From positions 1 to 64,000 of IMG/VR virus record IMGVR_UViG_3300037067_007090: DNA of 64,000 bases. The stretch is one strand, 5' to 3'. Position 1 is the stretch's first letter. Each line of letters begins with the position of its first letter. A program made the translations under genes and the position numbers. The notes under the pieces were generated by a model that worked only from the letters and a program-made list of their open reading frames with translations, had not been told where the DNA came from and did not search any database. Of this stretch, positions 8,002-31,234 are shown in pieces. This DNA comes from a virus (lineage: Duplodnaviria; Caudoviricetes).

Positions 8002-8002
8002 C

Positions 8003-8922: not shown

Positions 8923-9261
8923 TCACTGACGCTCTCCACCTACGAAGATCCGGATAACCGGGATGAATTCGAGGAGAAGGACAATTGCACCCAAAAGGAA
9001 CAGAGCGATACCCAAGAAAGTAAATGCCAGAGACACATTGCTCTGTGCGTTGCTCATGGTCGTATTCATGATACCCGTGAGGATCGGAAGGCTGTTGAAC
9101 AAAGTTCCTACCATGAATATACCGATGACGATGAAGATTGCCCCACCGACGACCATCCCGATACCGGCGAGAGTTGCCTCACCGATTGCCTCGGAGTCGT
9201 GAACGAGCTCCATACCCTTGTGATATGCGTCCTTGAGGTAAGTCGTAACTTTCTCAAACAT
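8923..9261 (-). CDS. putative major capsid protein of spindle-shaped virus type (two hydrophobic helices); alternative: pilin-like protein
   Basis: Polar leader then GEAT, long hydrophobic helix, loop with sequons N-T-T and N-V-S, second hydrophobic helix; C/G-ending codons unlike the rest of the window; own TATA and GAGGTG RBS. Confidence 0.6.
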   Translation of the reverse strand: MFEKVTTYLKDAYHKGMELVHDSEAIGEATLAGIGMVVGGAIFIVIGIFMVGTLFNSLPILTGIMNTTMSNAQSNVSLAFTFLGIALFLLGAIVLLLEFIPVIRIFVGGERQ

Positions 9262-13800: not shown

Positions 13801-14259
13801 TGCATCCGGGAACCCGCGTTCATCAGAACATTCAATATCCACAATACAAACGCGCGCGGGATAGTTTAAATCTTTGAATAATATGTCGTCAATCGTGCAT
13901 GGTGATTGTGTATAAGAGAAACCAGATTTTATTTTTGTATCAATCAGAAACCTCAATGTGTATAAAATATCCGCTTCATAGTGTTTAGAAAACTTCTCGC
14001 GCGATTCAAAAATGTCACCGGGTTTTTGAGTAATGACTTTCACCAAAGGTTCATGGAGAATGGAAAAATATTCATTTGAATCAACTTCGGAGGGTGGTGT
14101 TGCTTTGGGGGATTCTGATGCGGGAACAAAAAAATAAGGTTTGAAACCAACCACATCCACACGATGAGAAACACCGGAGGAGTCACGACCGAAGATGTTA
14201 ATGACAGGAGAGTTGTTATGGAAGGAGTATTCGGCTTGAGTTAAGCAGAGATCAGGCAT
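10888..14259 (-). CDS. polB: family B DNA polymerase (archaeal type) with one intein
   Basis: Exo I DIEC, Exo II GWN..FD, Exo III YNFTD; DAKSLYPMS, KVCMNSYYG, FGDTDS, KKRYAG. Confidence 0.95.
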   Translation of the reverse strand: MPDLCLTQAEYSFHNNSPVINIFGRDSSGVSHRVDVVGFKPYFFVPASESPKATPPSEVDSNEYFSILHEPLVKVITQKPGDIFESREKFSKHYEADILYTLRFLIDTKIKSGFSYTQSPCTIDDILFKDLNYPARVCIVDIECSDERGFPDATKDPIFCITCHDSFTNRYITFVVATSPLIETPKENGCFDPAHHDVITYTDEKSLLVDFCEYIKSTDPDIITGWNCVPEDTMVDTKNGLIPIKALIPGIVLNTGGKVVSVYNTGVKNTTRIRTSIGWDFIVGEDHRMLVSQIPQDRHYVWEHCENYEPTYEISKNITSDSILHIPIRQYENNIGLGLDPFNCYRAGLIYSDGARPDKWRFRFYNKNINLINRCCGENHRWFTKGVWCSNILQRDLKGAEHLILVGDKKQLNFGLLSRLSVEEFGAFLAGWYDGDGYSDVFCIGDHTINIRHFQLFAGFGAITSSTCNINLRILCITQKLLECMKKFLQKKIKNKIHIIKRKRVTRKDHFRFNFNRNLTNMYLRVKNVSNDVPKNCYDIETTEHNFSIGCVVHNCNEFDIPYILGRMDVLGIPRDAWSRLPSGNTGRIEIKGRQLFDLLSGYKRMHLGEQPSYRLDAIALEELGKQKIHHNGKVFDLWKEDPTNLVYYNFTDVELCVGINAKDETVEFHRYVAHYAGCPLEKTTNSMPIIDMLVLREAKENGFILPSKANSINTQESFEGATVIAPMRGVQENVAVLDAKSLYPMSMMTINASPETKDPKGELRAPNGVRFKKEPDGLVRKIQAKFLRERDEMKKERNKYPFDSREYKLLNMKQDVVKVCMNSYYGVSANPMFRLNDRDVGSAITSVGRALLEHNKKLVEHEEYKIVFGDTDSVGIKIPKSIGKEGTMFIAKELETLLNNSYPQFAKETLNADVQYFSVKFEKLYQRFFSGGKKKRYAGLLIWKEGVDAHKIDIVGFETKRSDSPKVTRDAMKTLIEMVLEGKPYEEIRTTISDVIRKYRAGKYSLDDVGIPGGIGKPLEEYDIQDAQVRAAVYSNTYLGTNFGKGSKPKRLYIKNVTSKYPRTDVVCFEYADQIDRNIFIVDVDTMLEKTLKTPLSRIMEPLNFNWCEFDPATPTLGKWGF
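12595..13578 (-). mobile_element. LAGLIDADG intein (328 aa) in the PolB Exo II motif
   Basis: GWN|CVPEDT...CVVHN|CNEFD; internal RAGLIYSDG and LAGWYDGDG motifs. Confidence 0.92.
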
Positions 14260-14848
14260 AGATAGGAGACCCCTCTACAAATAACATTAATGTTCCGACT
14301 GTAATTGCTAAAAGGATACCAGCAATAAATGAATGAATAATAATGCCCGTGACTCCCCCAAGACATCCTGCAAAAACGGCAGATAATAAAGAAATTAAAA
14401 TTCCCGTTCCTAACAACTCTTCTTTCATGTTGTTAATATATACGCGTTTAAAGGATATAAAAGTATTGGTATAGTAGAAACCTTTAAATACACAAACATC
14501 CAATACTATAAATATGTCTCTTGATATCAAAAATCAATTCTCTAGAACATTCAATCGACCAGAACCCAACGTTGGCGCGCTTGGTAAAAAGCAACGTGGA
14601 GAATATTATAGTGGGATCAAAATCTGGGGTCGTCAAGTAAAAGGCGAAAACCGCGATTAAATTTCATCAAAAGAATATTTAAAATCTAACACAAGCATTA
14701 CCAATCCGAAACAAGCCCCAAATAACATACTAGCAATAATACTTCCCACAATTGCACCCACACAGCCACCAATTCCACCTGCGAGTAAACCATCAAAAAA
14801 AGAAATTATAAATGCGATGGTGGGGTTAAATTCTTTGGTCATTGACAA
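14252..14848 (-). CDS. two small paralogous Gly-rich membrane proteins (14252-14428, 14657-14848)
   Basis: Similar hydrophobic segments (AGCLGGVTGII / AGGIGGCVGAI). Confidence 0.5.
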
Positions 14849-15252
14849 GTTCCATTAATATGTTCACATTTAGCACGATCTGATAATTGTGGTGTATTAT
14901 CTGTAAACGAGTATATTTGCCTATCATCATTTTTGTTGCAATAATATTGGATTGTATAATTATCTCCAATATTTATAATTTTGATATTAAATGGTTGCGA
15001 CAAATAATAATAACCATTACCGTTTTCATCAAACAATTCCATTGTTACACCCATACAACCAAAACCATTAAATATACCAACAACTTCTTTATTAGTGAAA
15101 ACGATATTTTTTGTAATTAATTGAGATGTTGGTTCGGGCTGCGGTGGCGTGATGTGAAAAACAAATTGGTTAAACAAAACACACAATATAATAACTGCAA
15201 ACATTATCATTATGCATCGTAGTATAAATATTGAGTCGTCGTCGTCGCTCAT
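14839..15252 (-). CDS. single-TM exported protein
   Basis: N-terminal hydrophobic helix then polar domain. Confidence 0.55.
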   Translation of the reverse strand: MSDDDDSIFILRCIMIMFAVIILCVLFNQFVFHITPPQPEPTSQLITKNIVFTNKEVVGIFNGFGCMGVTMELFDENGNGYYYLSQPFNIKIINIGDNYTIQYYCNKNDDRQIYSFTDNTPQLSDRAKCEHINGTCQ

Positions 15253-15257
15253 ATTAT

Positions 15258-15631
15258 TTACCCCTCATCAAACACTTCTTCTACATTCGATATATCATCA
15301 ACATTTTTTGGAGTAAGAATCTTCTTACCTAATGCAATCGCCAATTCTCGTTCCATCGTCGCTCCTTGACTTTTTCCCATCCGGGCAGTAGAAGAATGGC
15401 ATCACATTTCTCCACAAATGCCAAACAAATATTCATCCACGTATCATAACCAATATCTACAACATGTTGAAACCCAGATGTATTTTTATGCGGTGTGAAT
15501 GGTGCCCACCCTTTATAGACAGCAGCAAGCGCATAACGTGACGCTTCAATAATATTGATTTCTGTTCCGTGGAGTTCATCATAACCGTCGGGTATGAGAC
15601 TGAAAGGGCCGGAGATGTAGAGGGTTTTCAT
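15258..15631 (-). CDS. DUF4406/DUF1937-type nucleoside 2-deoxyribosyltransferase-like protein (apparent 1-nt frameshift near 15373)
   Basis: LYISGPFS...FTPH...CDAILLLPGWEK continues as SQGATMERELA in the shifted frame. Confidence 0.7.
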
Positions 15632-15805
15632 CTACGCACCAACAAAAACATTCGTGTTCATATATTTATCCGGCATCATTATAGAAGCAACCATCATAAT
15701 TGGCATTGCAATAATCATAAGAAATGGATGGCGCAAATATACTGCGATTGCCATTGATAATATACATACCAGCATTAATATTAATATAAATAATGGGATT
15801 TTCAT

Positions 15806-16738
15806 TCACGACCTCCCCTCAAATTTCAACGCCTCTCCGTTCTTCAAAATGAAAAACCCACTTCTCATTACCGGGTGTGTGGTCGTTTTACAAGTATATT
15901 CCAACGCCTCTCTATCAAACAATCCCCCACCTTCTATACATATAAATCTCCCACTTATATCACGCCCCTGCAATAAATTGTGACCATGCGCCATATGAAT
16001 ATTCTTTCCGAATTTTGCACACAACGCGCGCGCTACTCTCAAAGGCAAAATACTAAAGTTTTTCGGGTGGCAAAGCATCCATTCTTGAATCCGATCATTT
16101 CCATTTTCATCCACACAATTGTGATTCAAAATCATAAAATCATCTGTAGTAGAATGAACACGTCTTTCATAATCAGATATGGTAATGTTTCTCGGCATCA
16201 TCGCTAATACTATATCTTTAAACCCTTCTTTCCCACCAGTAAGTGCAATAATACGATTCTCGTGGTTTCCAGAACAAATATAAATTTCTTCAAACCATTC
16301 AAGAAGGCGGGTCATTATTTTTCGACCTTCATCTTTTTCAGCCTTCCATGTAATAGACACACTTCGGTTTGACTCTGTAACACTAGTGAAAATACTAAGG
16401 TTATCACAATCCAAGAAGTCTCCGTCGATTGCGAGTTTCCTAATATTTAAATCTTTACAAACACCAATCATATAATCAATAAGAGATTCATCGTGGCACG
16501 GTATGTGAAAATCGCACGCGAGACAAATATCGCCAGCAGTAAACACCAACGGCGCGCGCGCATTTATAAGTTGCTGCGCGAAAGATCCTTTCTTTGCTTT
16601 ATATCTTCTACGATATTCGGCAGCACGATCCGGATGTTCTTTTTCATAAATATTACCCTGCACAGAACGTTGCGCAGAACGATTCCGTCTGGCATTTCTC
16701 GCCTTAACGGTTAATGGATTTTCCAGACCGTGACTCAT
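15806..16738 (-). CDS. calcineurin-like metallophosphoesterase
   Basis: DFH, DGDFLD, GNHE, HGH motifs in the canonical order. Confidence 0.85.
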   Translation of the reverse strand: MSHGLENPLTVKARNARRNRSAQRSVQGNIYEKEHPDRAAEYRRRYKAKKGSFAQQLINARAPLVFTAGDICLACDFHIPCHDESLIDYMIGVCKDLNIRKLAIDGDFLDCDNLSIFTSVTESNRSVSITWKAEKDEGRKIMTRLLEWFEEIYICSGNHENRIIALTGGKEGFKDIVLAMMPRNITISDYERRVHSTTDDFMILNHNCVDENGNDRIQEWMLCHPKNFSILPLRVARALCAKFGKNIHMAHGHNLLQGRDISGRFICIEGGGLFDREALEYTCKTTTHPVMRSGFFILKNGEALKFEGRS

Positions 16739-16858
16739 TAGAAATCACCGTGACTATACAACTTTAAATAATAGGTATTGTGTTTTGACAATTATACAAC
16801 CTCGAATTAAAAAGATTATGTTTAGTATATATACGCGTATTCTATTTAAGGGTTTCGT

Positions 16859-18506
16859 CTATACTTTCTTTTTCATCATAGTAATCTCCGTTTCATACCA
16901 ATCTCGGGGTTGCAGCAAATGAAAAAACTTAACAACAATTGCGTTAACTGTTAAAAATATCCCAACTGCTAAATAACCCCACGTGAGATAATAAGGTGTT
17001 ACATTGGTAGAGGCATAAATTAAAAATGCCATTCCTCCAAGTAAATATAATGCCATAAACAAGATGTCTAAAATGGCAGACATAAATCCATCGTAAGTAA
17101 TCTTACGCGAATCCCATTCTTCTTTTGTGTAAGTAGTCATTTCGATTTCTCCTTTTTGCACCACGAAATTTTAATGCCGTATATGATAGCCATTAAAACT
17201 ATCGCTCCGACAATAATAAGACCCCCTCCAATACGTTCTGAAAGAACATCCATTTCTGTGAGTGGCATTATTCGTCTGTTATTAAGCCATAATGTTACAT
17301 CTCGCGGAATAAATAACATCAAAGATCCAAATATTAATATAGACCATACAAATAAGTTGGCAGATAAATTACATAAAAATTTCTTTATTTTGTGTAATGT
17401 CCTACATGAAATCGGAAGAAGTGTAATTTCTATTGTCATTTAATATTAACCCCAACCATTTTTGCATTTTCATAATAAACAAGAGTCGCCCCAACCAACA
17501 TGAAGAATATACCAATCCCGCAACCGCTTATTGTTGATGCCGATTTTATATTATTAATAAGATTTAATACAAAATCGCTCGATGCTGGAAGATGCCCCAT
17601 CATTGAAAAATACATCATAAAAGCGATTGGTGTTAATACGATTCCCCCGATCAATAAAACGACCCCAAATATTGTTACTTTGGTTATCATTTCACTTCCA
17701 CCATTTCCCCAACAACATTTCCTTAAACAACCACACACCCATTACCAACAGCGCACCAAATAAAACTGCTACCAAAGTAACAACATTCAATCCAGTGAGC
17801 AATTCAACTGCGATACCAAGAATGATACCTGCAACAAATACAATCATTAAAAATATCTTTGCAATGCTGCGCGCGGCACTTTCAATAACTTCGTTTCCAA
17901 TATAATTTGTTTTCTGTTTCCACACAATCCACCCACACGCGACTGCTGTTATAATCGCAAGAACGATTACAAGTGCACGCACTAAATCCCCTATGAGAAG
18001 TGTTGCAGCGATGCCGGAGAAGATACCGGCTTCAAGAACGATTAAAATAAAGAATCGGATAAGGTTTCGGGCGATGGATTCTGGAGTTGTGGTCATGGTG
18101 ACACCCCACAAGTTTGGTTGCCGCACGAAATTGGGGCATCGATAGAATAAATCCATTTATAACCCAATTCTTCTTTAATTTTTACTTTGACCGTTTCATT
18201 ATCTGCCACTTTAAATTTTGTAACTATATCACAGATATAATACACATTTTCATTGGTATCAATAACAGTCATATCACTATTTTGAATATGTTTGCATATT
18301 GTTATTGTATCGGTGTATGTAGAACCACCAATAATAAATATTACTGCACAAATACAAGATAATATTGCGAATAAACAAGCAAATACTTCAAAAAATGCTT
18401 TGGTGTTAGTATTGTCAAAAATAAAAATAATAATTGACAACACGGCAAAAATAGCACATATACCTACCAAATAATACCCCATCGGATCGACATCAAACGG
18501 AATCAT
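16859..18506 (-). CDS. array of five small membrane proteins (16859-17140, 17137-17439, 17436-17690, 17692-18096, 18093-18506)
   Basis: Each has 2-4 hydrophobic helices; ATGA overlaps. Confidence 0.6.
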
Positions 18507-19171
18507 TTCCCATTCACCTTCTTAAACTCATCAATAGCAATCTGCACAACAGAATCTTCGTATCCTTCGATAATATCAAACGCCTTTTCCTTTAACAGAT
18601 TGATCGTGATGTCGGAGGGATTAATATTTTGTCCCTTACAGAAGAACGTAACGAGTTTTACAATGCGCGCGATGCCGGTTGGTTTAGAAGAAGCAACCGG
18701 GGATGAAGAAACCGTACCTGTTGGCTGTGTTGCTGCAACAGAAAGTGCATCTGGAAATGTAGAAACCGAAGATTTCTCGGTTTCTACGACCGGAGGTGTA
18801 ACGGGTGTTTCAACAACTTCCACAGGAGCAGTTACTTTCGGTGTGCGCTTCCTTCTTTCCTTAACAACTGGGGGTGCAATTGGTTCTACAACGGGTTCTT
18901 TTACTATTGGATTCTCTTTACATTTAGTCTTACAGTCTACAAAACTGCACTTTCTACACGCTTCTATTTCAAGAATGTTTGGCTCGGTATTATCGTGTTC
19001 TACATTATAACAGGATGGAATATCTTTATTTTTTCCTTCATACCTCTCCACAAGAGTAATAGAACTCATCTTTGTTTTAAGAGTAATATCAATTTCCGTG
19101 ATGTCCTCTTCTGAAACTTTTAAGTTCACAAGGCTTACAAGCATGTTTTTGAGTTCGTCTTTTGTTGCCAT
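18503..19171 (-). CDS. hypothetical protein with Cys cluster and Pro/Thr/Val-rich linker
   Basis: CYN...CRKCSFVDCKTKC; low-complexity PVVE repeats; own promoter. Confidence 0.55.
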   Translation of the reverse strand: MATKDELKNMLVSLVNLKVSEEDITEIDITLKTKMSSITLVERYEGKNKDIPSCYNVEHDNTEPNILEIEACRKCSFVDCKTKCKENPIVKEPVVEPIAPPVVKERRKRTPKVTAPVEVVETPVTPPVVETEKSSVSTFPDALSVAATQPTGTVSSSPVASSKPTGIARIVKLVTFFCKGQNINPSDITINLLKEKAFDIIEGYEDSVVQIAIDEFKKVNGK

Positions 19172-19255
19172 AATATCACAATTAGATAGAACGCGATTGT
19201 ATTTAATGGTTGTGTAGAAGGATTTAAATAGATTGATGGCGTATATAGAACGTAT

Positions 19256-20635
19256 ATGACTGACGATTACCCGGTCCTAAATGGAGGATCTACAACCAGC
19301 CAAAACATTTCCTGCTTCAGCAGATATCAAATGAACAGCGTGAAATGTCTATCCTGTGTTGCAGGGTCTCATTGCTATGATGAAAGAGAGAAACGCAAGG
19401 GTAAAGGTTTTGCACCATGACAACAGACAAGCAGCCGAAGGGATACGATTGCACAAAACCGCCCAAGGACATGTGCCCCAAAGATGCAACCTGTGGGCAT
19501 TGTTTTTGGTGGTCGAATAAGACGGAAGCTCGTTCCCACCCAGTCATCGCCCCGCTAGAGGGAGCCGCAAAAAGACTTTTTCCCACGCCCCTCTGCCAGA
19601 AATGTCCCATATATTTAGTCGGGCGTGGTTGCATCCACGAACTTGCGTATGAAAGTTCTGGGGTGTGCGGTGCCGGAATTACCGCGATAGAGCAGGCAGC
19701 CCGGGAGAAAGTGCTGGAAGAAAATCTAGCACTAATCCGCGATGTCATCTCAAAAGATCAATCCGGTCTTGCAGAGGCGTTGGCAAAAATACAATCTCTC
19801 GCAAAAGGATACGACTGGATCCCGGCCGGGGAATGGGGAAGTTACGACTATACGCAGCGTACAGTAGAAACGCTCCAAAAAGAATGCGGGTATCTTCTGG
19901 AGGAAATTGAAAAGATTGCATACGAAGGATTGCGAGATTCTGGAAACAGAGTTATTGCACATGTCCGGTCCTGTGAAGAATCCCTCCGTCATAAGGAGCA
20001 ACCATGACCAACAACTGTAGTCATTATAAACAAAATAATATCGTTAAATTCACTGATAAAAATTATCATCAATGTGAAACTTGCATGTGGATCGACCCAA
20101 AAGATAAAACCCAATGCCACCCACCGGATTATGATTGCTGTGGAACGGAAGATGATTTTTATGAGTTAAACGAAACTTTAACCGATTTATATTGGATAAA
20201 GGGGAGACTTGAAACAGCATTAAAAGAAAACCGATGCATTCGAAATGAATTTGAAACCGTATCGGAGCGTTTAAATAAAATTATCAAATTTTGTGAGTTT
20301 ATTAAATATCTAAATAAAGAGAAACCATGACCGAAAACACCAAAAACCAATATCGATGCGAGACGTGTTGTAATTACGCATCTACAGATTGCCCATCTGA
20401 AACAAACAAACTGTTATTTGATATCAATCATAATAATTTTTTGGGGTTCTCAATACAACGTGATAAAATGTATAATATTACAGAAACAATTGGTTGCGCT
20501 TCACACTCTTCCTTTATTAAAAATCCCACTAAACACTTAAGTAATCTTATCAAACACTTTGAAGCAATGGATGACCACGAAGATTTGTATCTTTGTGATA
20601 TTATTGCATTGTTGAAAGGTGAGATTGAAACATAA
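19256..20635 (+). CDS. four coupled Cys-rich hypothetical ORFs (19256-19420, 19417-20007, 20004-20330, 20327-20635)
   Basis: ATGA overlaps; CxxC motifs; first two have visibly higher GC. Confidence 0.55.
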
Positions 20636-20737
20636 ATTTACATAACAAACCTTTAAATATAAATAAAACATAACTATATCACGCGTGTAAACGCAATTCT
20701 GTATAGTTATCAGAACATAAATTTTTGGGAGACCCAA

Positions 20738-23096
20738 ATGGAAACTTACGAAGATAAACTCATTAAAGAACGATATTGCGTCGATGGAGAAAATAGTTAT
20801 CCCGATGTTTGTGAACGTGTAGCGCGATTCATTTCAAGCAACGACGAACAATATCATCAGTTCAAGAAAATTCTTGTAGATAAAGATTTTTTGCCCAACT
20901 CACCAACCCTGATGAATGCCGGAACTTCTAACCCCGCCTTGTCAGCGTGTTTCTTTTTGCCGGTAGAAGATACAATTGAAAGTATTTTTGATGCTAACAA
21001 AAATGCAGCAAAAATCTTCGCTCGTGGGGGCGGGGTCGGATTCAATTTCTCAAAACTCCGACCCGCTGGAAGCAAAGTTGGAAAACGCAACGGTGTTTCC
21101 TCCGGTGTGGTTTCATTTATGGAAGTTTTTAACACAATGACAGAGGTTGTCAAGCAAGGAGGCCGTCGCCGGGGAGCTATGATGGGATGCCTTGATATTG
21201 CGCATCCAGAAATCAAAAACTTTGTGACATGTAAACAGACAGAAGGAAAACTCTCTAACTTTAATATCTCTGTCAAACTCACAGATGAATTCATGAAGAA
21301 TCCCACACCCGAAATCATGAACTTGATTGTGAACGGAATTTACAATAACGGAGAGCCGGGAATTCTGTTCAAAGATACAATCGAAAAGTATAACCCGGCT
21401 CCCGAATATGGAGAACTCAATACAAATCCATTAAACTCCGTGTGGATTTAAAATCGCGTAAATTGCTGGAACACCCTTAAGCATCTCTAACTACAACGCA
21501 ATCAGAAATGATAAACGTGAACGTTTTAAAAATAGAAATGATTGGGCAATCAGCAGCCAAGCATCTTATCAATAAGATGAAGGTTCAGAGACTATAGACG
21601 CGACATCGATGATATAGTCCGATCTCATATGAGAATATGAGAGTGTGACAGAAATGATCACACCTGCAACGAAGCATCGTTGCTGTAACAAAAAACCTCT
21701 TGGCGGGGAGGCTCTATTAGAATCATGGGGGAGCTGCAACTTGGGTAGCATCAACCTTTCCCACCACATAAAAGACAATGCAATTGACTACGACAAACTC
21801 AAAGCCACAATAGACACAGCGGTTATATTCCTCAATAATGTAATCGACAAAAACAAATACCCACTCCAAGAAATTGACTTTGCATCCAAGCGAACGCGCA
21901 AGATCGGTCTCGGTGTTATGGGATTCCACGACGCGTTGATTAAAATGGGGATTCCTTATAATAGTCAGAAGGCACTTGATATTGCCGAAGAAATTATGAA
22001 ATTTATTAATGAGCGCGCACATGAAGTGTCAGAGTCATTGGGTAAGAATCCGAATATCAAACAGAACAGGTTAAATGCTTCATTGACTTCGATTGCACCA
22101 ACGGGAACAATTAGTATTATTGCGGGTGCTTCATCAGGTATCGAACCCGCATTTAATTGGGTATATACGCGGCATGACACGTTGGGCGAACATTATATTG
22201 TGCATCCGTTGTTTGAAGAAGCGTTGAAAAATCTAATGACTGATCTTAATGGCAAAGTAGGATTCTTCGTAACCGTGGATGGCGTAAAATATGATACGTT
22301 GGATGGAACGAGACAAGCCATTATTAGACACTGCCATGAAAAGGGGACGATTCGCGATATAGAATTTTTACCAGATTCTTTCAAACTCCTCTACCAAAAC
22401 GCAATGGACATCCCTTCATCAATGCACGTAAAAATGCAGGCCACATTCCAAAAGAATGTGGATATGTCCATTTCAAAAACAATCAACCTTCCAAACTCTG
22501 CTACTAAAGAAGAAATCAAACAGATCATTATTGACGCGTGGAAGAGTGGTTGTAAAGGTCTTACAATCTATCGCAATGGTAGCCGTGAGAATGAAGTGTT
22601 GGCACTTAAGAAACCCGTGGTTGTTGAAAGTATCGTAGATTGGATCGAAACTGAAAATGCTTTCTACGAATCCAAAACCCCCGCTGTAATTTACAAAGTC
22701 CATAGTGGATGCGGGAAATTCTATGTTATCATTGGCCACGACAAAGAGGAACCAACAATGATCTTTGTGGAAGGTGATGGTGTTGGTGGGTGTCAGGCAA
22801 ATATGGCAGCAATGGGGCGTTCTATTTCGGCAGGATTGGAATGGGGGACACCAGCAGAGAACTATGTAAAACAATTCTCTAAAGTAAAGTGCATGACGGC
22901 GATGCAGAACAAATTATCGTGTGGTAAATCGTGCGCGGATATTACAGGAAAATGTTTGGACGATGCGATAAAAATGTTAATGCCCAAAAGTATAAAGGTT
23001 GAAGCAACAGAAGAAAAATGTTGTGACGCGCCGCATTATGTGATGGAAGGCGGATGCAGGATTTGTACGAATTGTGGCAAAAGTAGGTGTTCGTGA
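20738..23096 (+). CDS. nrdJ: class II (B12-dependent) ribonucleotide reductase, two exons (20738-21431 + 21703-23096), C-terminal TSCPD-like/Zn-ribbon domain
   Basis: FLPNSPTLMN, ACF, GGGVG, QGGRRRGA, spliced TNP-C-GE, SCNLGSINL, RKIGLGVMG, IAPTGTIS, SISKTINL, GCKGLTIYR. Confidence 0.92.
21432..21702 (+). mobile_element. group I self-splicing intron (271 nt, no ORF)
   Basis: Core elements AATTGCTGGAAC (P), AATCAGCAGC (Q), GTTCAGAGACTATA (R), GATATAGTCC (S); P1 AAATCCAT/GTGGATTT with U-G at the 5' splice site; P10 CTCCGT/GCGGGG; terminal G; removal restores the NPCGE frame. Confidence 0.93.
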
Positions 23097-23413
23097 TGGT
23101 TAATCAAAAACTAACACCCCCACTACCGTGCCATAGAACCGGAGAAATCTACATCAACTTCGAAGATTGTAACCAAGACATTCTCTTATTTTGTGCGTTT
23201 CGATACGCTCTCGGTCGTCAAACTTATGTTGTCAGCACTATCGCTGATATCATAAAAGCAAACTGGGATCATATGCCACAGAGTAGAAGAAATCTTTTTA
23301 GAAAAGAAATAGAAGAAGCGATTGAAAAGGGATATGCGGGTAGTGTAAATATTGATGTGCCGGAATGGTTGTCGATTTTGCACTTGGTTGATACGGTGGT
23401 TGGAAATGATTGA
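23087..23413 (+). CDS. hypothetical protein
   Basis: Coupled ORF (CAFRYALGRQTY motif). Confidence 0.55.
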   Translation: MFVMVNQKLTPPLPCHRTGEIYINFEDCNQDILLFCAFRYALGRQTYVVSTIADIIKANWDHMPQSRRNLFRKEIEEAIEKGYAGSVNIDVPEWLSILHLVDTVVGND

Positions 23414-23780
23414 CAAAAATGAAAAACTATTACCATGTCCATTTTGTGGAAGTAACGATCTAGAAATAGTGCCAGATCTGGCAGAAGATGATAACAACCG
23501 AATTTATGCATATCATGTTTTTTGTAAAGATTGCTATGCGAGGGGGAGAAATCTCTATCCTCATTGTTGGTGCGAATCCGAACAACAAGCAATCGAAGCG
23601 TGGAACAATAGATTTATTCCAGCAATGATACCTGATGAAGTTGATGATAACCGTGTTCAATTATCTACAGATGCATTATTTATTATTAGAAGAGAACTTA
23701 TGAATTCTGAAAATATAATTAAACATATAAACGATCTTTTAACGCCAATTCAAATGGTTTCAAAAAAGGAGAAAAAATGA
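23406..23780 (+). CDS. Lar-family restriction alleviation-like Zn-finger protein
   Basis: LLPCPFCGS...VFCKDC...EQQAIEAWNNR. Confidence 0.75.
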   Translation: MIDKNEKLLPCPFCGSNDLEIVPDLAEDDNNRIYAYHVFCKDCYARGRNLYPHCWCESEQQAIEAWNNRFIPAMIPDEVDDNRVQLSTDALFIIRRELMNSENIIKHINDLLTPIQMVSKKEKK

Positions 23781-24006
23781 TTAAGTTTATAGCATTTACG
23801 TGTTGTGCGACTTGCGAACATAAGAAAACAAAAGAAAGTTCGTGTCATACAAATATGACTTGTGATCTTGATAACAGCGAGACGGATGATAATCTTGTTT
23901 GTGGGCAATGGAATATGAGCGAGTGTTTGAAGAGGTTTACGAATAAAGAGTAACAACATTTAATAACTATTAGAACGTATACTATTTACTATGAAAGGTA
24001 ACAATC

Positions 24007-25014
24007 ATGTATAATGGAATTAAACGATGCTCAAATTACGAAGATGTAGATGCAACAATAGGATTATTGCATCTGTTATTTGGAGAAGTTCAATATGGAT
24101 ATTATTTCAACTCCCGCATTCAAAAACCCGGGTTCCTGAAATACAGTATGTATTTTACTACACCTTTTGACAACATCGCCGAAAAAGAATATGGTGATCA
24201 CAATGGGTTTTGCAAAGAAGAACACAAAACGTTTGAAAAGTGGGGGGTAATTAACGGAGAAAAAACAAAAGACTTAATGCAACATATCCCGCTACAATAT
24301 GATGATCATTCTCCGGCAGTATCATACGATTGTAACCACGGAAACCAATTTGATCGTGTTACCCCAACATACAAAGAAGCAATAACACGAAACATATGGT
24401 TTAATAACACATCAAGTCGGGGATTTTTTGAGCAGTTCAAGCGAAAGAACCGAAACCAAATTCTTGAAGATCTCGAACGTTCAATGTTGTATCAGGTTAC
24501 ATTTGATATTCCATTTGATGTTTTATCTGAGCATATAGTTATTGACAAAATTCAATATAATGGAGAAAACGAAAGTCACATCAATTTATATGCTCCAAAA
24601 GACACATCAAACCCAGTTCAAGAATTATTGAGAGATCTTGTTCGGGTGGAGTCCGTATTAACAGAAATGGCAAATTGCATCAACGAGATAAAATCCGATC
24701 CGGAAAAATATAAAAGAGATAATACCGAAGACTCATGGGCAAAAGAATGTTGTAAAGACGGGTACAACATGGAAAATGCAGAAGTCCTTCTGACAAAGTG
24801 CCAAAAAGCATTTAAACAGATGGAAGAAGTGTTATATCAGGCGCGATATTTTGATGTCAATGCGGAGCCGAAAATATCGGATATTACAAAATGTGCTCAT
24901 AAAAAATGCACTCGCAACGCAGCAGAAGGCAGCAAATTCTGTGATCAATGCATCCAACTCCCTACAAAAGAATGTAACTATTGTGAAGTGGGAAAATTTA
25001 ATACGCGCATATAA
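24007..25014 (+). CDS. hypothetical protein, C-terminal Cys-rich
   Basis: 335-aa ORF; no family recognised. Confidence 0.6.
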   Translation: MYNGIKRCSNYEDVDATIGLLHLLFGEVQYGYYFNSRIQKPGFLKYSMYFTTPFDNIAEKEYGDHNGFCKEEHKTFEKWGVINGEKTKDLMQHIPLQYDDHSPAVSYDCNHGNQFDRVTPTYKEAITRNIWFNNTSSRGFFEQFKRKNRNQILEDLERSMLYQVTFDIPFDVLSEHIVIDKIQYNGENESHINLYAPKDTSNPVQELLRDLVRVESVLTEMANCINEIKSDPEKYKRDNTEDSWAKECCKDGYNMENAEVLLTKCQKAFKQMEEVLYQARYFDVNAEPKISDITKCAHKKCTRNAAEGSKFCDQCIQLPTKECNYCEVGKFNTRI

Positions 25015-25090
25015 GTATAGATAGTGCAGAAACAATAGAACGATTTATAAAAACGAAGACGGCGAAGCAAATTTGTAAGGAGAAATAAAA

Positions 25091-25633
25091 ATGAAAACTG
25101 GAACAAAATCTCTGTTGTGGGGCGTACATCAAATATTTTGGCATCCACTAACTGTTACACTCGCATGGAAAGAACTCTATAAATCGTGGCCATCATGGAA
25201 AGAATTTGTTTGTATCTTCATCCACGATTTGGGATATTGGGGATGCCCAAATATGGATGGCACAGAGGGAGAAAATCATCCGGTGTGGGCAGCGAGTTTT
25301 GCAGCAAAATATCTCGATACAAAAACCGATACAGAATGGCGGCATTATAGAAATTTATGTTTATATCATTCTCGGCATTTTGCAAGAGCACGAAACACAA
25401 TTCCATCCAAACTTTGTTGGGCCGACAAACTATGTTACAAATATGATCCCGTTTGGTTCTACACACTGCGCGCCAAATTGAGTGGTGAAATAAAAGAATA
25501 CCGCGCGCTTCCTCAAAGCCAAAACTTTAAAGGCTCTGATTCTGACTGGTATAGAGAACAAAGAAAATTATATATTAAACTTGCACTTTCACAGAAAGCA
25601 GATACTATTCCGTATCAGGATGTGAAGAATTGA
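25091..25633 (+). CDS. HD-domain phosphohydrolase-like protein
   Basis: H...IHDLG...H...YHS...ADK spacing typical of the HD fold. Confidence 0.65.
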   Translation: MKTGTKSLLWGVHQIFWHPLTVTLAWKELYKSWPSWKEFVCIFIHDLGYWGCPNMDGTEGENHPVWAASFAAKYLDTKTDTEWRHYRNLCLYHSRHFARARNTIPSKLCWADKLCYKYDPVWFYTLRAKLSGEIKEYRALPQSQNFKGSDSDWYREQRKLYIKLALSQKADTIPYQDVKN

Positions 25634-25868
25634 TTAGAATAAAAATAATAGAAAATGCTGGAAATCATTTTGCTCAACGATTTTTAAAAAATTGTTTTGG
25701 TGGTGATGAAGCAGTAGCATACCTCGCATCCCAAAAAGCACATTGGCTTGAAAATCACGAAAGGGAAATTGGATTTCTCACTAAAGAATTCGGGGATTTA
25801 AAAATATCGATTGGAGATGATTATGAGTTGTTTGATTCCGAATACACCGATTTATTTGAGGTTGTTGA

Positions 25869-27425
25869 ATGATTATCCAAGGCGACGCTTTAACAGTTTT
25901 GAAAAGGATGGATAGTGAGTCAGTGCATTGTGCGGTAACGTCAAGTCCATATTATGGATTGCGTTCGTACAATACCGAACCACAAATATGGGATGGAGAT
26001 CCAAACTGCCAACATGAATGGGGGGAAGTTCATCCACCGGGATATAGATCATCTGATACAAAACCGGGTCCAATGCAACATGAAGGGAATACGCACCGTG
26101 AGAATTTGCGAAGTGATATTTGTTCAAAGTGTGGAGCGTGGAAAGGTGAACTGGGACAAGAGCCTACACCTGAATTGTTTGTTAAACACCTAACAACTAT
26201 CTTTCATGAATTAAAAAGGATTTTAAGAAGCGACGGTGTTTTCTGGATGAATATTGGGGATAGTTATTGTGCTTCTAAATGCGGATCGTTCAACGGTGGA
26301 TCAGATATTCTTAAAGGAAGAAATCTTGAAGGTCACTCTAAATCCGGGAATGTAGATAAGTCAAAACTTATGGGAATGAAACCCAAAGACCTTATTGGTA
26401 TCCCGTGGGCTTTAGCATTTTCTATGCGCTCCGATGGTGCCTCATCACCACAGACAATGTATACAGTAGAAAAAATCAAAACTTCGTTGCTTCGAGATTA
26501 TGATACTTGGAATGACGTTCCAAAACATACTAAAAGAACAATTGAAGATTTGGATGAAGAGTGGTTAAAAGCAAGTAAGGGGGGTTGGTATCTCCGTTCT
26601 GATATTCCTTGGGTAAAAAGAAATTCACTTCCATCATCTGTAACAGATCGCCCCGGCTCTTCCATTGAACACATATTCTTATTCTCAAAATCACAGAAAT
26701 ATTACTATGACTACATAGCAACAATGCAACTTTCATCAGAATCTTACAACAAAGATAAAAGACCGCGCGGTGTTATTCGTCAATGCGTAAACACAAACTC
26801 CAAGTATCCAGATGGGGGGCAATTTAAAAAGCAAGATAACACAGGGAATGAAACTTACACAGGATTTAACGCTCGCTATGAACCTAATGGTTATGGCCTT
26901 CGTTACATGCGGGATTCCGATTTCTTCTTCAAGACATGGCAAGGACTTCTTCACAATGAAGATGGTGAACCAATGGCTCTTGTGGTAAATCCGAAACCGT
27001 ATAAAGGTTCACATTTTGCCGCATATCCGATAAGGCTTGTAGAACCCCTAATTCTCGCGGGAACATCAGAAAAAGGCGTTTGCCCACATTGTGGAGCGCC
27101 GTGGGTTAGAGTTGCGAAAAAAGAATCATATATAACTCGCCCCACCATTGGTTCTGATGATCAGAAGCAAAAACTCAATCCCGGTAATGCGCAGGGATTA
27201 GAACGCACTGGTGGTCATGTTGCTCAAATTACTGAAACCATAGATTGGCAACCATCTTGTAATTGCACAAATAACATACCAGTTCCCGCCACAATTCTCG
27301 ATCCCTTCTCCGGCTCATCAGCAACCGGTGTCGCTTGTAAACTCCATAATCGTGATTATATTGGTATAGAACTCAATCCTGAATATTGTGAACTTGGAAG
27401 AAAACGTATTCGTGAAGGCAAATAA
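25869..27425 (+). CDS. DNA N4-cytosine/N6-adenine methyltransferase (beta class)
   Basis: IIQGDAL, catalytic-type TSSPYY near N-terminus, WMNIGDSY, HFAAYP, C-terminal LDPFSGSATTG...YIGIELN. Confidence 0.88.
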   Translation: MIIQGDALTVLKRMDSESVHCAVTSSPYYGLRSYNTEPQIWDGDPNCQHEWGEVHPPGYRSSDTKPGPMQHEGNTHRENLRSDICSKCGAWKGELGQEPTPELFVKHLTTIFHELKRILRSDGVFWMNIGDSYCASKCGSFNGGSDILKGRNLEGHSKSGNVDKSKLMGMKPKDLIGIPWALAFSMRSDGASSPQTMYTVEKIKTSLLRDYDTWNDVPKHTKRTIEDLDEEWLKASKGGWYLRSDIPWVKRNSLPSSVTDRPGSSIEHIFLFSKSQKYYYDYIATMQLSSESYNKDKRPRGVIRQCVNTNSKYPDGGQFKKQDNTGNETYTGFNARYEPNGYGLRYMRDSDFFFKTWQGLLHNEDGEPMALVVNPKPYKGSHFAAYPIRLVEPLILAGTSEKGVCPHCGAPWVRVAKKESYITRPTIGSDDQKQKLNPGNAQGLERTGGHVAQITETIDWQPSCNCTNNIPVPATILDPFSGSSATGVACKLHNRDYIGIELNPEYCELGRKRIREGK

Positions 27426-27470
27426 CCCACCACAACCTTTTTATATTAACGCGTCCTATCTTATTACAAT

Positions 27471-28259
27471 ATGCCTCCTCTCGTTTCTGTTATCATTCCA
27501 ACTCACAACCGCAACCTATCTTTAAAACGAGCAATCCAAAGTGTCCTAGATCAGACTTTTACAGATTATGAAATTATTGTTGTAGATGACACATGGGCAA
27601 CCAACGAAATTTCCGATAATTATCCAAATGTCCATTTTCTTCATATACCTACAACATCATATCCAGCCATATCCAGAAACATGGGCATTAAAGTTTCAAA
27701 TGGAAAATACATTGCCTTTTTAGATGATGATGATGTTTGGTATCCAGAAAAATTAGCATCGCAGATATCAAGATTATTAATAGACCCAAAATTAGGATTG
27801 GTTTGCAGTAACGGGAACATAGGAAAAGATTTATATATTAAAAGAAATATTACAAATGAACCCGACATGCTTCCACAGGAAATAATAGGGGATTTCGTTG
27901 TAACATCGTCATGTGTAATTCGCAGAAGTTTATTGGAAAAAACAGGTCTATACAACCTGCTCCCACTTTGTGAAGACTATGATTTCTCAATAAGATTTGT
28001 AGCAACAACACAAATTTATTACGACCCGACACCTTTGTTTGAATATACTATTTCAGAAAATAGTATACAAAAACGAAGTAACTATTCCTTTGTTGCTTAT
28101 CACCAAAACGTTATAAAAGTAATGGAAAATTTACGAGAATTTTTAAAAAGGAACAATCTGGAAAAACCAGAAACATCGTTTTTAATTCATTATAGAATTC
28201 TCGATGAAAAAATAATGGTAATGTGGAATATAGTTAAAGATTTTATTAGAGGATATTAA
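27471..28259 (+). CDS. GT2 glycosyltransferase
   Basis: VSVIIPTHNR, VVDD, SRNMGI, AFLDDDD, EDYD. Confidence 0.9.
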   Translation: MPPLVSVIIPTHNRNLSLKRAIQSVLDQTFTDYEIIVVDDTWATNEISDNYPNVHFLHIPTTSYPAISRNMGIKVSNGKYIAFLDDDDVWYPEKLASQISRLLIDPKLGLVCSNGNIGKDLYIKRNITNEPDMLPQEIIGDFVVTSSCVIRRSLLEKTGLYNLLPLCEDYDFSIRFVATTQIYYDPTPLFEYTISENSIQKRSNYSFVAYHQNVIKVMENLREFLKRNNLEKPETSFLIHYRILDEKIMVMWNIVKDFIRGY

Positions 28260-29252
28260 ATGACAAAAATCTTTTTCGCCGGAGATATGCGCAGTCCTTT
28301 TATACAAGGAGATGCAGAACTTTTAAAGGAAGATCACGATGTTTTTATTTTTAACACCCCGATCAAAAAAATGGATTTTCCGCTTTATCTATTTAAATGT
28401 TTTCAACAAGTTTTAAATATTAGAAAATCAAATCTCGTCTGGGTTTGGTTTGCAGATTGCCCGGCACTACCATTAGTTATTATTGCAAAAATATTTAATA
28501 TACCCACAGCTGTGAATGTCGGTGGATTTGAAGTTTCTGGAATATCTGAAATTAATTATGGAAATCAACTTAAACCAATCCGTGGATATGTTTCAAGATG
28601 GATTATAAGAAATGCAACAGAAATTATTGTTCCTTCCCCCGTATACAATGTTAAAACATTAAAAGTTGGTATAGGAATAAAATTGATGGATAATACATTT
28701 GCATTGCCCGAAGACGATTATTATTTTGAAAATTATTACTTAACCCACACAATGGCTCATATAATCACAATTCCGAATTGGGTTGATACGGAAACTTGTG
28801 ATATACCACTTCCACAAAAAGAAGATCTTGCTGTAACCGCCGTGTGTTCGAAACATGCGTATGCTTATAAAGGAATTTCAATATTTCAAGAAGCATCAAA
28901 AAATATTCTTTATAACACAAAAATATTAGAACATCTCCCACGAAAAGAATACGAGGACTATTTGAAACGCGCCAAAGTCTATTGCCAACTTTCACGCGAT
29001 GAAACATTTGGTATCTCACTTGTAGAGGCAATGGCATATGGTTGTGTGCCTGTTGTTAGCGATAAAGGTGCTTTGCCGTGGATTGTAGAAGACACGGGTA
29101 TTATCGTGCCTTATGGAGATGTTACAGCAACTATTAATGCAATTAATAAAGCAATGACTATGGACGGTTCAAAAGCGCGTGAGCGCGCACGTTATTTCAG
29201 CCGTGAAAGAAAACAAGAATCGGTGAAACAACTCATCAAGGAATTAATATGA
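28260..29252 (+). CDS. GT4 (GT-B) glycosyltransferase
   Basis: ETFGISLVEAMAYGCVPVVSD. Confidence 0.88.
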   Translation: MTKIFFAGDMRSPFIQGDAELLKEDHDVFIFNTPIKKMDFPLYLFKCFQQVLNIRKSNLVWVWFADCPALPLVIIAKIFNIPTAVNVGGFEVSGISEINYGNQLKPIRGYVSRWIIRNATEIIVPSPVYNVKTLKVGIGIKLMDNTFALPEDDYYFENYYLTHTMAHIITIPNWVDTETCDIPLPQKEDLAVTAVCSKHAYAYKGISIFQEASKNILYNTKILEHLPRKEYEDYLKRAKVYCQLSRDETFGISLVEAMAYGCVPVVSDKGALPWIVEDTGIIVPYGDVTATINAINKAMTMDGSKARERARYFSRERKQESVKQLIKELI

Positions 29253-30421
29253 CACGTATTCTTATACTCGGAGACTACCCACTACCCAATGAAACAATAA
29301 CCGGCGGAATAATGCGGTCAGTTTATTTAACTGCCAATGCATTATCAAAATTGTGCCCAGAATATGACTTTCACGTATTGACAATCACGGATGGAATTGA
29401 TAAATCTTTTGTGTCAATCAACAAAAATCTTGCAATCCATTATATCCATTTTCCTTTAAGAAACAAACCAATCTTGGTTCCAAAATTCCTTTCCAAGCAA
29501 TTGATATTGCATGAAATAAATAAAATAAAACCAGATTTAATCCACGCCAATGGTTCAAGCTGGGAATATGGATACCCAGCAATTGCATATAAAAAATGTC
29601 CTGTTCTTATAACTGTTCACGGAGTGTCACACAATGAATCAAAATATTGGTCTGGTCTAAAAGGCGCGTGGCATCGTATAAGTTGTTGTAAAATGGAATC
29701 ACACATCTTTGAAAAAATGGAAAACGTTGTTGCCGTTTCTTATTATGTAGAAAGAGAAATGAGAAAATGCATATCGAAAACACAATATGGAAACTATGCG
29801 ATACATGTAGATGTCATTTCCAACCCGGTTGATCCATGTTTTATGGATGTTACAACAAAATACACAATACCAAATCTATTATTATATGTTGGGGGGATTG
29901 AAAAACGAAAAGGATTAGACGTTCTTATCCGATCACTTTATATAGTTAAAAAACAAATGCCTTATATAAAATTGAATGTCGTTGGTTCGATACGAAGTCC
30001 TATATATTGCGCAGATATAATGAAACTCATTTCCGATTTGGATTTAATTGACAATGTGAATTTTGTTGGAAAAGTAAGCGATACATTATTAATGAAAGAA
30101 TATTCTAATGCATCAATATATATTTCACCTTCATATGAAGAATCAGAGGGTATAACCATTCTTGAAGCGATGGCTACAGGAACACCAGTAATAGCAACCC
30201 GGTCGGGCGGTTCGGAAAGTATAATAAAAGATGGTGTTGATGGATTGTTGGTAAAAAACGGAAACCACGAAGAACTAGCATTTAAGATTTTAATTTGTGG
30301 TGATGCATTAAAAGAGCAACTTGGAAAAGGAGGGAGGGAAACAGCATTGAAATATTTACCGGAGAATATTGCGAAACAGTATATGGAAGTTTACAGGAGG
30401 TTGTTGAAATGCCAAAACTAA
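29249..30421 (+). CDS. GT4 (GT-B) glycosyltransferase
   Basis: KRKGLDVL, ESEGITILEAMATGTPVI. Confidence 0.9.
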   Translation: MTRILILGDYPLPNETITGGIMRSVYLTANALSKLCPEYDFHVLTITDGIDKSFVSINKNLAIHYIHFPLRNKPILVPKFLSKQLILHEINKIKPDLIHANGSSWEYGYPAIAYKKCPVLITVHGVSHNESKYWSGLKGAWHRISCCKMESHIFEKMENVVAVSYYVEREMRKCISKTQYGNYAIHVDVISNPVDPCFMDVTTKYTIPNLLLYVGGIEKRKGLDVLIRSLYIVKKQMPYIKLNVVGSIRSPIYCADIMKLISDLDLIDNVNFVGKVSDTLLMKEYSNASIYISPSYEESEGITILEAMATGTPVIATRSGGSESIIKDGVDGLLVKNGNHEELAFKILICGDALKEQLGKGGRETALKYLPENIAKQYMEVYRRLLKCQN

Positions 30422-31053
30422 CCGAACGGGAGCGCGAAGGATTTGAAAAAATACTAACGCAGGATTTGAAAGCAATCAATCAACGCTTTATCAGTCAGAT
30501 AAAAGATTTCTGGGGAATTGCTCGTAGTAATGTGCTTAAACGAAAAGGATGGGATACTCTCATACTCGAAAAAGAACAACTGGAACGGAAACAAAAAGAA
30601 ATTAAACAAAGAATGCACGAGATAGAAGATATTTTAAATAGTGAAAAATTGAGAGTAGAACAAGTGGTTGAACTCGGTGGAAAATCAAATGAATATGGAC
30701 GATGCGAAGGTGCGAACTTTTATGGAATTCCGATTACATCACAATTTGAATATGAAATTGTAGAATACATCAAAGCAAATATTGACCTCGAAGTGCCGGC
30801 AAAAATGTTGCGTGATGTATGTGAATCATCAATCCGCGCTCTCGTAATGGCTGGAACGTTTGAAGAAGCACGTGGGGCATATGAAAAGTTTTATTCTCTG
30901 GATTTCAGAAAGTATGGTGTTGATATTCCCCCACGATTGGATGATATTTGTGCCAACAAAAATTCAATGTTATATGCTCAACAATCATTGCAACAAATTG
31001 AAAAAGAAAAACCGGATATTAAGTTGATTGAATGTAAGGAGGAGAAAGAATGA
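30409..31053 (+). CDS. hypothetical coiled-coil protein
   Basis: Charged heptad-rich ORF in the operon. Confidence 0.55.
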   Translation: MPKLTEREREGFEKILTQDLKAINQRFISQIKDFWGIARSNVLKRKGWDTLILEKEQLERKQKEIKQRMHEIEDILNSEKLRVEQVVELGGKSNEYGRCEGANFYGIPITSQFEYEIVEYIKANIDLEVPAKMLRDVCESSIRALVMAGTFEEARGAYEKFYSLDFRKYGVDIPPRLDDICANKNSMLYAQQSLQQIEKEKPDIKLIECKEEKE

Positions 31054-31234
31054 AAGATGGTTATAAATTAACAATATTTTTAAGTGTTATAGTAATAATA
31101 TTGGCAATATTTATACATGGCACAGTTATTCATTTAACACAAGTGGGTGAATTTCAAAAATGTGTAAATGCAACACTTTCTGATCCACTCTATTCCACAT
31201 TTGCATGTGATAGACCGGGATGGTGGTTTGGAAT

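Follow-up and report, generated by a model that had tools for sequence, protein, structure and literature searches.

Group I introns are well documented in the ribonucleotide reductase (RNR) genes of bacteriophages and Bacillus, including T4 nrdB and nrdD/sunY, Twort nrdE, SPbeta bnrdE and bnrdF, and nrdE and nrdF of the B. cereus group (PMC3653736, PMC2248736, PMC3984707). RNR genes are the commonest targets of such introns in bacteriophages, and the insertions typically lie near functionally important residues; split nrdJ genes are rare among them (PMC3653736, PMC2248736), and a 2013 survey of 128 phage genomes recorded just two, one of them without an intron (PMC3653736). The archaeal group I introns reported to date belong to subgroups IB4 and IA3 and reside in rRNA genes only, and the same survey discounted its few IA2 and IC3 matches, which might have stemmed from contamination by bacteria or phages (Nawrocki, Jones and Eddy 2018, PMC6125680). 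The literature that we searched agrees in this respect with a preliminary description of the DNA studied here, made from the sequence alone, which had held that archaeal group I introns are mainly found in rRNA genes (PMC6125680). The stretch in question, hereafter the window, comprises 64,000 nucleotides of the IMG/VR record IMGVR_UViG_3300037067_007090 and makes up the initial 64 kb of contig C3, which is 87.8 kb long and which we treat as a virus-like element of about 88 kb. We find that the nrdJ gene of this element harbors a compact group I intron devoid of any open reading frame (ORF), and we consider it likely that the host of the element is a methanogen of the Methanomicrobiales, in the proximity of Methanoregula.

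The first exon of nrdJ ends in AAATCCAT, with T21431 as its last base, and the second exon begins with GCGGGGAG at position 21703. The 271 nucleotides between them (21432-21702) start with TAAACTCCGTGTGGATTT and end in CCTCTTG, the terminal residue being G21702. A search with covariance models recovered a match to the Rfam family RF00028 over positions 21422-21641, with a score of 67.3 bits against a gathering cut-off of 50 (E-value 6.5e-15), which upholds the assignment to group I made in the preliminary description; RF00028 was the sole non-tRNA Rfam family matched in the window. Excision of the insert in silico results in a stop-free ORF of 2088 nucleotides, encoding 695 amino acids and containing ELNTNPCGEALL. 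Across the joint the spliced product reads YGELNTNPCGEALLESWGSCNLGS, with the Cys codon rebuilt from the T of exon 1 and the GC of exon 2 to give the motif NPCGE, and the previously proposed junction 21431/21703 within this codon is thus confirmed in silico by the restored frame. The 695-residue product aligns to intronless NrdJ proteins across the junction without any gap, and the cellular nrdJ genes of Methanomicrobiales are uninterrupted at the intron site. Furthermore, an unconstrained minimum free energy (MFE) fold of the intron yields the helices P1, P4, P5/P5a-c, P6a, P7, P9, P9.1 and P9.2, with a z-score of -3.5 relative to shuffled sequences. Stop codons interrupt all three forward frames of the 271-nucleotide intron, leaving no ORF for an endonuclease, as had been noted earlier. 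Judged by its covariance match and predicted fold, the insert is a group I intron that splits the catalytic Cys codon of a class II RNR gene.

The domain architecture of the two exons is consistent with this placement. Exon 1 encodes the Ribonuc_red_lgN domain (PF00317) along with profile positions 1-123 of the RNR barrel (PF02867), and exon 2 carries the barrel from profile position 219 on, followed by a TSCPD domain (PF12637). Homologues of the protein are annotated as adenosylcobalamin-dependent RNRs, and the domains taken together with the NPCGE loop mark the predicted spliced product as a class II, B12-dependent NrdJ. In class I and class II RNRs, catalysis is initiated by a thiyl radical on this cysteine. 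The ORF of the unspliced exon 1 ends in NTNPLNSVWI followed by a stop, and the only downstream ORF, which lies over exon 2, includes LGGEALL; neither of them contains the Cys. An enzyme assembled from these two separate proteins would therefore be predicted to be inactive, making the RNR dependent on RNA splicing.

The same intron was recovered in several relatives of the element. With exon 2 as the query, IMG/VR yielded four viral contigs with NrdJ identities of 83, 83, 83 and 54%, and all four show an RF00028 match at the same codon, with scores of 72-79 bits. Another four copies, of which three are new variants, came from a signature scan of the Joint Genome Institute (JGI) metagenomes and all lie at the same nrdJ site; at least seven distinct intron-bearing alleles with intact exons can be recognized (window/L082, L011/L083, L012/L013, L014, L085, L086). 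Exon 1 of the relatives, which ends on the same base, is 76-88% identical to that of the window in amino acid sequence, and exon 2 is 54-100% identical. The intron itself shows 89-100% nucleotide identity in the other copies. Compared with three other alleles, the intron of the window is 89-91% identical at the nucleotide level, relative to 69-81% for the flanking exons and 53% for the distal part of exon 2 of L014. The intron thus appears as an island of conservation, a pattern that fits lateral spread, structural constraint or both.

To quantify the conservation of pairing we used a covariation alignment of five sequences with four distinct rows, which offers modest statistics. Of the 314 pairing cells 98.7% are satisfied, and sliding the 3' partners by 1-3 columns lowers this figure to 32-42%. 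All cells of P3, P4, P5, P6 and P7 are paired, as are 95.8% of those of P10 among the relatives. Double-sided changes are seen in five pairs (one each in P1, P5a and P9.1 and two in P9.2), compared to 0-2 in the slid controls. The most revealing of these is the change in P1, at 21430/21443, which converts an A-U pair to G-C in the relatives, with the U-G pair at the splice site being invariant: the window combines the exon codon CCA with the guide GUGGAUUU, and the others combine CCG with GCGGAUUU, such that a synonymous change in the exon is matched by a U to C change in the guide. Within its modest statistics, this agrees with what selection for splicing would be expected to produce.

These features can be assembled into a conventional splicing pathway. 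On folding of the pre-mRNA, the last 8 bases of exon 1 would pair with the internal guide as P1, placing a U-G pair at the splice site; the P1 with a wobble that had been proposed beforehand is realized in 8 of 8 pairs, the wobble being U21431-G21442. Exogenous guanosine would then attack after U21431, following which the terminal G21702 (omega) would replace it in the G-site of P7. The earlier note of G21702 as the terminal residue agrees with its being an invariant G among the copies compared. P10 would align exon 2 for exon ligation, and the pairing suggested for it, of CTCCGT with GCGGGG, is seen in 6 of 6 pairs. Ligation would rebuild the TGC codon of the thiyl-radical Cys in N-P-C-G-E. 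A stop codon 18 nucleotides into the intron would keep ribosomes out of the core, and the dNTP supply of the virus would be dependent on a ribozyme. It is from these features that we infer splicing and catalytic activity of the intron. The coordinates of its elements are collected in Table 1.

Table 1. Exons of nrdJ and predicted elements of the group I intron (positions in the window)
Feature	Position	Strand	Basis or remark
nrdJ exon 1	20738..21431	+	231 codons and first base T of the Cys codon; ORF, Pfam
Group I intron, 271 nt, ORF-less	21432..21702	+	RF00028
P1: exon AAAUCCAU with internal guide GUGGAUUU	21424-21431 with 21442-21449	+	8 of 8 pairs; U-G wobble at the 5' splice site
P10: guide CUCCGU with exon 2	21436-21441 with 21703-21708	+	6/6 pairs, three G-U
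In-frame TAA	21449..21451	+	End of ORF 20738-21451; just past the guide, upstream of the ribozyme core
P3	21454-21458 with 21599-21603	+	Rfam alignment; encloses the P4-P6 domain
P4	21464-21469 with 21550-21555	+	Rfam alignment, MFE fold
P5	21474-21476 with 21544-21546	+	Rfam alignment, MFE fold
P5a-c, three-way extension	21482-21540	+	Rfam alignment, MFE fold
P6/P6a	21556-21583	+	Rfam alignment, MFE fold
P7: GACUAU with AUAGUC	21590-21595 with 21614-21619	+	Pseudoknot with P3
P9 hairpin	21623-21642	+	MFE fold
P9.1 hairpin	21643-21663	+	MFE fold, one compensatory pair
P9.2 hairpin	21666-21683	+	MFE fold, two compensatory pairs
Omega G	21702	+	G before GCGG invariant in all copies
nrdJ exon 2	21703..23096	+	GC of the Cys codon, 463 codons, stop; Pfam

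The nature of the element that carries this intron is a matter of some importance. Its gene set includes a family B DNA polymerase (PolB), a primase-helicase, a Cas4-like nuclease, the RNR, methylases, many homing endonucleases and 12 tRNA genes, and its relatives are listed as viral in IMG/VR, with one related record of 58 kb bearing direct terminal repeats and being rated as 100% complete by CheckV. On the strength of the replication genes and these relatives there is a good probability that it is a virus rather than another kind of mobile element. The best-surviving competing explanation is that it is a plasmid or other non-viral mobile element of methanogens, in which case the biology of the intron would be the same. 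This would account for the failure of Pfam and PHROGs to recognize any capsid, portal or terminase in the 88 kb, which is a point against a viral nature, as well as for the absence of Terminase_6N from four related records and for the large glycosylation and surface-protein modules. Nevertheless, the virus-typical composition of the gene set (PolB, RNR and the tRNA genes among them) and the complete, terminally repetitive relative are not what it predicts, and we regard it as rather unlikely. A further protein speaks to this question. The minus-strand gene at 8923-9261 encodes 112 amino acids, with a polar leader followed by two long hydrophobic helices, the layout of an archaeal-virus capsid protein, and it is conserved at the DNA level in 3 of 4 related viral records. 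It has only sub-threshold Pfam matches (DUF7139, DUF6463) and no PHROG match, and it may be viewed as a candidate for a membrane protein or a capsid protein like those of spindle or pleomorphic viruses.

A second issue is whether the intron is still functional. The preliminary description had recognized a core with P, Q, R and S elements. The part of this claim that concerns the R/S sequences and J8/7 stands, as they are present and agree with the family consensus in the Rfam alignment; the core is nonetheless not complete, with P8 being reduced and P2 and P7.1/P7.2 lacking. P7.1/P7.2 is a trait of subgroup IA2, and in its place a mere 3 nucleotides (AGA) lie between the 5' strand of P7 and P3'. 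P8 is normally counted within the conserved P3-P8 domain of the group I core. Between P3' and P7' of this intron there are 10 nucleotides, CAUCGAUGAU (21604-21613), in which no P8 helix is found; in the Rfam alignment 1 nucleotide of the intron corresponds to 59 model positions of the P8 region, which has shrunk to about 8-10 nucleotides and is too short for a stable hairpin. Because of this reduction, the catalytic activity is not to be taken for granted. We also noted that the segment left where P8 would lie, 21604-21611 (CAUCGAUG), forms a perfect 8-nucleotide palindrome, itself too short for a hairpin, and that some relatives have CAUUGAUG in its stead, which is self-complementary when G-U pairs are allowed. 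It is pure speculation that this palindrome could pair two intron molecules.

The alternative that these observations raise is of a decaying intron, in which splicing was lost along with P8, nrdJ being either a recent pseudogene or a tolerated loss. P8 and P7.1/P7.2 are indeed missing in comparison with all the close bacteriophage relatives of the intron, and splicing has no RNA support: the splice joint 21431/21703 was absent in the reads of four runs (one labelled RNA-seq but probably of DNA, and three of DNA), a result that speaks neither for nor against splicing, and none of the runs containing the stretch is recorded as RNA. Moreover, the high identity of the intron suggests a recent insertion, such that the exons might not yet have decayed, and the insertions could be too recent for the integrity of the exons to be informative. 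These points, together with the reduced P8, weigh against a functional intron. Against decay, the P8-less form has been kept in the seven or more alleles described above, among which the protein divergence of the exons reaches 46%, with no stops or frameshifts in any exon; the substitutions in the intron preserve pairing, including the guide change in P1 that compensates the synonymous change in the exon; and the core R/S and J8/7 sequences retain the consensus of the family. We accordingly hold decay to be distinctly unlikely, and the covariation and repeated retention argue that the P8-less core is very likely to be catalytically competent.

The third question concerns the host. Contig C3 belongs to a 1.27-Mb bin (G000) together with 49 other contigs, with none of which it has any sequence in common. 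It also differs from the bin in its expression signals: a Shine-Dalgarno core is found upstream of 38% of the C3 genes compared to 8% on the main contigs of the bin, and an upstream TATAAT is seen in 8% as opposed to 22%. Sigma-70-type promoters on C3 occur at chance frequency (77 found, 77.4 expected), as do hairpin terminators (14 found, 14.8 expected). A phylogenetic signal comes from PolB, whose polymerase domain is 53-59% identical to the single-copy PolB found in 147 of 151 Methanomicrobiales genomes, in contrast to 28-32% for Methanococcoides, Methanotrichaceae, Methanoperedens and Methanomassiliicoccaceae and 31-33% for haloarchaeal tailed viruses. A comparable PolB was not found in 60 relatives of the bin, and an early scan of contigs with the PolB query gave no match.

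Our protein searches for relatives of NrdJ and PolB covered 5.8 billion proteins. In these, virus-like PolBs of about 795 residues form a continuum from 89% to 60% identity, with the next sequences being those of cellular Methanoregula (57-59%), among them that of the isolate M. formicica. A quick maximum-likelihood tree, for which support was computed as SH-aLRT values only, places the viral clade (support 100) inside Methanomicrobiales (SH-aLRT 97-100) as a sister to the Methanoregula-type sequences, with Methanoculleus branching earlier and the other orders forming the outgroup. The TnpB of the contig is 57-69% identical to copies from Methanoculleus, Methanotrichaceae, Methanococcoides and Methanoperedens. 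There are also two DUF3821 surface proteins, and for one of them the closest Atlas clusters are archaeal without exception, with the scores serving only as leads.

A DUF3821 gene lies in the part of C3 beyond the window, within 79787-87817. It encodes a protein of 539 amino acids (L005 15787-17406, minus) that has a signal peptide, linkers rich in Pro and Thr and a membrane anchor at the C-terminus; in an overlapping stretch, the gene at L006 3-1406 (minus) has a DUF3821 match covering the same residues, and the two may be one gene. Beside the DUF3821 protein is a 1900-residue protein (L006 2115-7817, plus) with at least 9 PKD repeats and a glycine-rich domain. By their domain composition, the DUF3821/PKD genes constitute a methanogen-style surface-protein module on the element. 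In the rest of the bin we observed a weak RF00028 match (G000:C16:31047-31192), which at 24 bits does not reach the cut-off, along with another family B polymerase (G000:C13:26917-28581), with an 803-residue frame that is 28% identical to the C3 PolB.

Several observations count against an archaeal host. The 16S rRNA of the bin scores 1459 bits with the bacterial model versus 1054 with the archaeal one, and the bin has four sigma-70 genes and no TBP that we could find. The GC content of C3 (37%) is lower than the 45-63% of the Methanomicrobiales loci examined. NrdJ shows 40-49% identity to Methanomicrobiales versus 37-40% to other cellular groups, a marginal gap, and the tRNA cluster, which gives similarly weak matches to Methanomicrobiales and to the relatives of the bin, does not discriminate between them. 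A search of positions 14300-34000 of the window against 401 Methanomicrobiales genomes detected no match to a CRISPR spacer; it returned gene-level similarity only, along with three short near-perfect matches outside repeat arrays. Within the bin, too, no spacers or repeats were found. No syntenic provirus was found: the Methanoculleus contig with the 57% PolB is ordinary chromosome and has no other viral gene in common with the element. Another candidate, G081:C14, was rejected as a provirus, being a low-GC glycosylation region of the host with matches of only 29-40%.

The metagenomes in which the stretch occurs at full length are from landfill and groundwater, which counts in favor of an archaeal host. 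The labels of the metagenome-assembled genomes (MAGs) that contain the relatives are those of unrelated bacterial groups, Tissierellia (79% in PolB) and Babeliales (52% in NrdJ), an inconsistency that would result from the mis-binning of low-GC viral contigs. We regard an archaeal, Methanomicrobiales host as highly probable on account of PolB nesting, TnpB, DUF3821 and the expression signals, which provide indirect but convergent support for the archaeal virus postulated in the preliminary description despite the bacterial bin. That the element is instead a bacteriophage of the binned small-genome bacterium, or of another one, with an ordinary phage RNR intron, is the least probable of the alternatives: it could draw on the bacterial bin with the same GC as the contig (0.37), on the bacterial labels of the relatives, on the nearest sequence relatives of the intron all being in bacteriophages, on the phages of Clostridioides, Moorella and Geobacillus having the best full-length NrdJ among deposited viruses, and on a phage-typical recombination module (AAA_24, DUF669), but these labels come from different phyla, and the unshared sequence, the differing signals, the chance-level sigma-70 and terminator motifs and the methanogen-like PolB, TnpB and DUF3821 proteins make it very unlikely.

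The distribution of the intron among the kin of the element bears on how it moves. The close relatives of NrdJ (79-84% identical over exon 2) comprise both exon-2-only proteins of 437-480 residues and full-length intronless proteins of 680-682 residues. One locus, L073 (a 78.9-kb MAG contig, NCBI GCA_041890195.1), is syntenic with the element, with the order PolB ... nrdJ - GT2 - GT1 - GT4 - B12-rSAM, and lacks all three insertions discussed here: its PolB has 795 residues versus 1123, its NrdJ of 682 residues is uninterrupted, and its rSAM protein has 547 residues versus 830. In the close intronless alleles (P0002, P0003, P0005, P0007) the catalytic loop reads N-P-C-T-E or N-P-C-A-E, with the DNA being CCAT|GTACGG around the site, as against N-P-C-G-E and CCAT|GCGGGG or CCAT|GCGGAG in the intron-bearing alleles, the latter being the partner of the P10 guide. 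N-P-C-G-E is near-universal in this loop. The altered loop codon, which overlaps the P10 partner, could reflect resistance to homing at this site, or else co-conversion of those alleles that carry the intron.

The presence and absence of the intron among close relatives, combined with its better conservation than that of the exons, make it probable that it spreads laterally by recombination. None of the genes flanking nrdJ is an endonuclease. In collaborative homing, ORF-less introns are moved by free-standing endonucleases, as in the case of cyanophage psbA and the T-even phages. The nrdJ intron shares with these systems the lack of an ORF, its polymorphic occurrence and a genome rich in free-standing HNH/NUMOD3 genes, but here no endonuclease gene adjoins nrdJ, which leaves collaborative homing as a candidate route only; the free-standing HNH/NUMOD3 proteins of the element are possibly candidates for homing the intron in trans. 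Such genes include three in tandem with NUMOD3 motifs and HNH-type similarity at 6536-8866 (+), which resemble free-standing homing endonucleases, and further free-standing HNH genes at 43382-44263 and at 49952-51055 (GmrSD_N with HNH).

The element carries other selfish insertions besides the intron. The PolB gene (10888-14259, -) contains an intein of 328 residues at 12595-13578, between the exonuclease and polymerase domains; it begins with Cys and ends in VVHN followed by Cys, and is absent from the 795-residue PolB of L073 and from other relatives. The B12-binding radical SAM gene (31220-33712, +) is interrupted by an HNH-containing intein (matches to Pfam Intein_splicing and to PHROG HNH), and uninterrupted versions are seen in L073 (547 residues) and in the Methanomicrobiales genome G081, the latter as a contiguous tblastn match. 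These inteins are removed at the protein level, unlike the nrdJ intron, which would be removed at the RNA level, and all of them are absent from L073. Additionally, a gene at 25869-27425 (+), for an N6/N4 DNA methylase of 518 residues, has a Pfam match in two stretches over residues 19-404, and may contain another insertion.

If the interpretation offered here holds, self-splicing introns and the ecology of homing extend to the archaeal virosphere, through a lineage common to viruses of two domains, and some phage-type matches treated as contaminants in archaeal data merit a second look. The 271-nucleotide P8-less intron would serve as a natural minimal test case for the contribution of the P3-P8 domain, and the three insertions, with empty sites in relatives, as a natural system for the study of gain and loss of selfish splicing elements. 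The locus is also a warning that large low-GC contigs of archaeal viruses can be binned into small bacterial MAGs, a recurring misplacement that could mislead host assignment.

Full-text literature searches yielded no report of an archaeal virus with a group I intron, and a text search for natural group I introns lacking P8 returned none, the matches being unrelated 'p8' papers. In the 151 Methanomicrobiales genomes there was no group I intron above the cut-off. A sub-threshold group I match of 31.6 bits was observed on a contig of 45% GC from a Methanomicrobiales MAG (L087, G125:C66:37577-40818), with clear R/S, P7.1/P7.2 and P8, an HNH_3 endonuclease ORF before it and a family A DNA polymerase fragment after it, and may mean that a different mobile element carries a second intron, this one bearing an endonuclease. 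The closest sequences to the nrdJ intron are introns from phages of Staphylococcus, Bacillus, Listeria, Aeromonas and Vibrio, which are 72-81% identical to it over 137-148 nucleotides; the nearest are in the lysin gene of Staphylococcus phage PT1-4 (with an HNH ORF), in the family B polymerase gene of Bacillus phage vB_BpuM-BpSp and in Aeromonas phage PhAER-4. They have in common with it the segment from J3/4 to the 5' strand of P7, the three-way P5 extension, the R/S core and P9, and differ in residing in other genes and in having 50-70 nucleotides more between P7 and J8/7, which make up P7.1/P7.2 and P8. The Aeromonas phage intron has an insert of 39 nucleotides between P7 and P3', versus 3 in the nrdJ intron. 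The sequence of P3 also differs between them, with complementarity being kept. By sequence, the nrdJ intron belongs to a lineage otherwise seen in bacteriophages, from which it appears to have lost P7.1/P7.2 and P8. We somewhat favor the view that a phage-type ribozyme lineage crossed into the viruses of methanogens, where its natural minimal core serves to splice an mRNA, and that this is the first such case described in a protein gene of the archaeal virosphere.

In relation to the described RNR introns of phages and Bacillus, the nrdJ intron resembles them in its insertion into a conserved critical stretch of RNR, its sporadic occurrence and its early in-frame stop, and is set apart by its location in a class II nrdJ gene of a probable methanogen virus, by the lack of an ORF and by the missing P7.1/P7.2 and P8. 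The archaeal rRNA introns (PMC6125680) are of other subtypes, are found in cellular genomes and encode LAGLIDADG proteins in about half of the cases, as distinct from an intron inside a protein gene of a viral-like element. As a group I intron of a viral RNR gene it is ordinary; it stands out for its probable residence in a methanogen virus, its cross-domain kinship with phage introns and its P8-less core.

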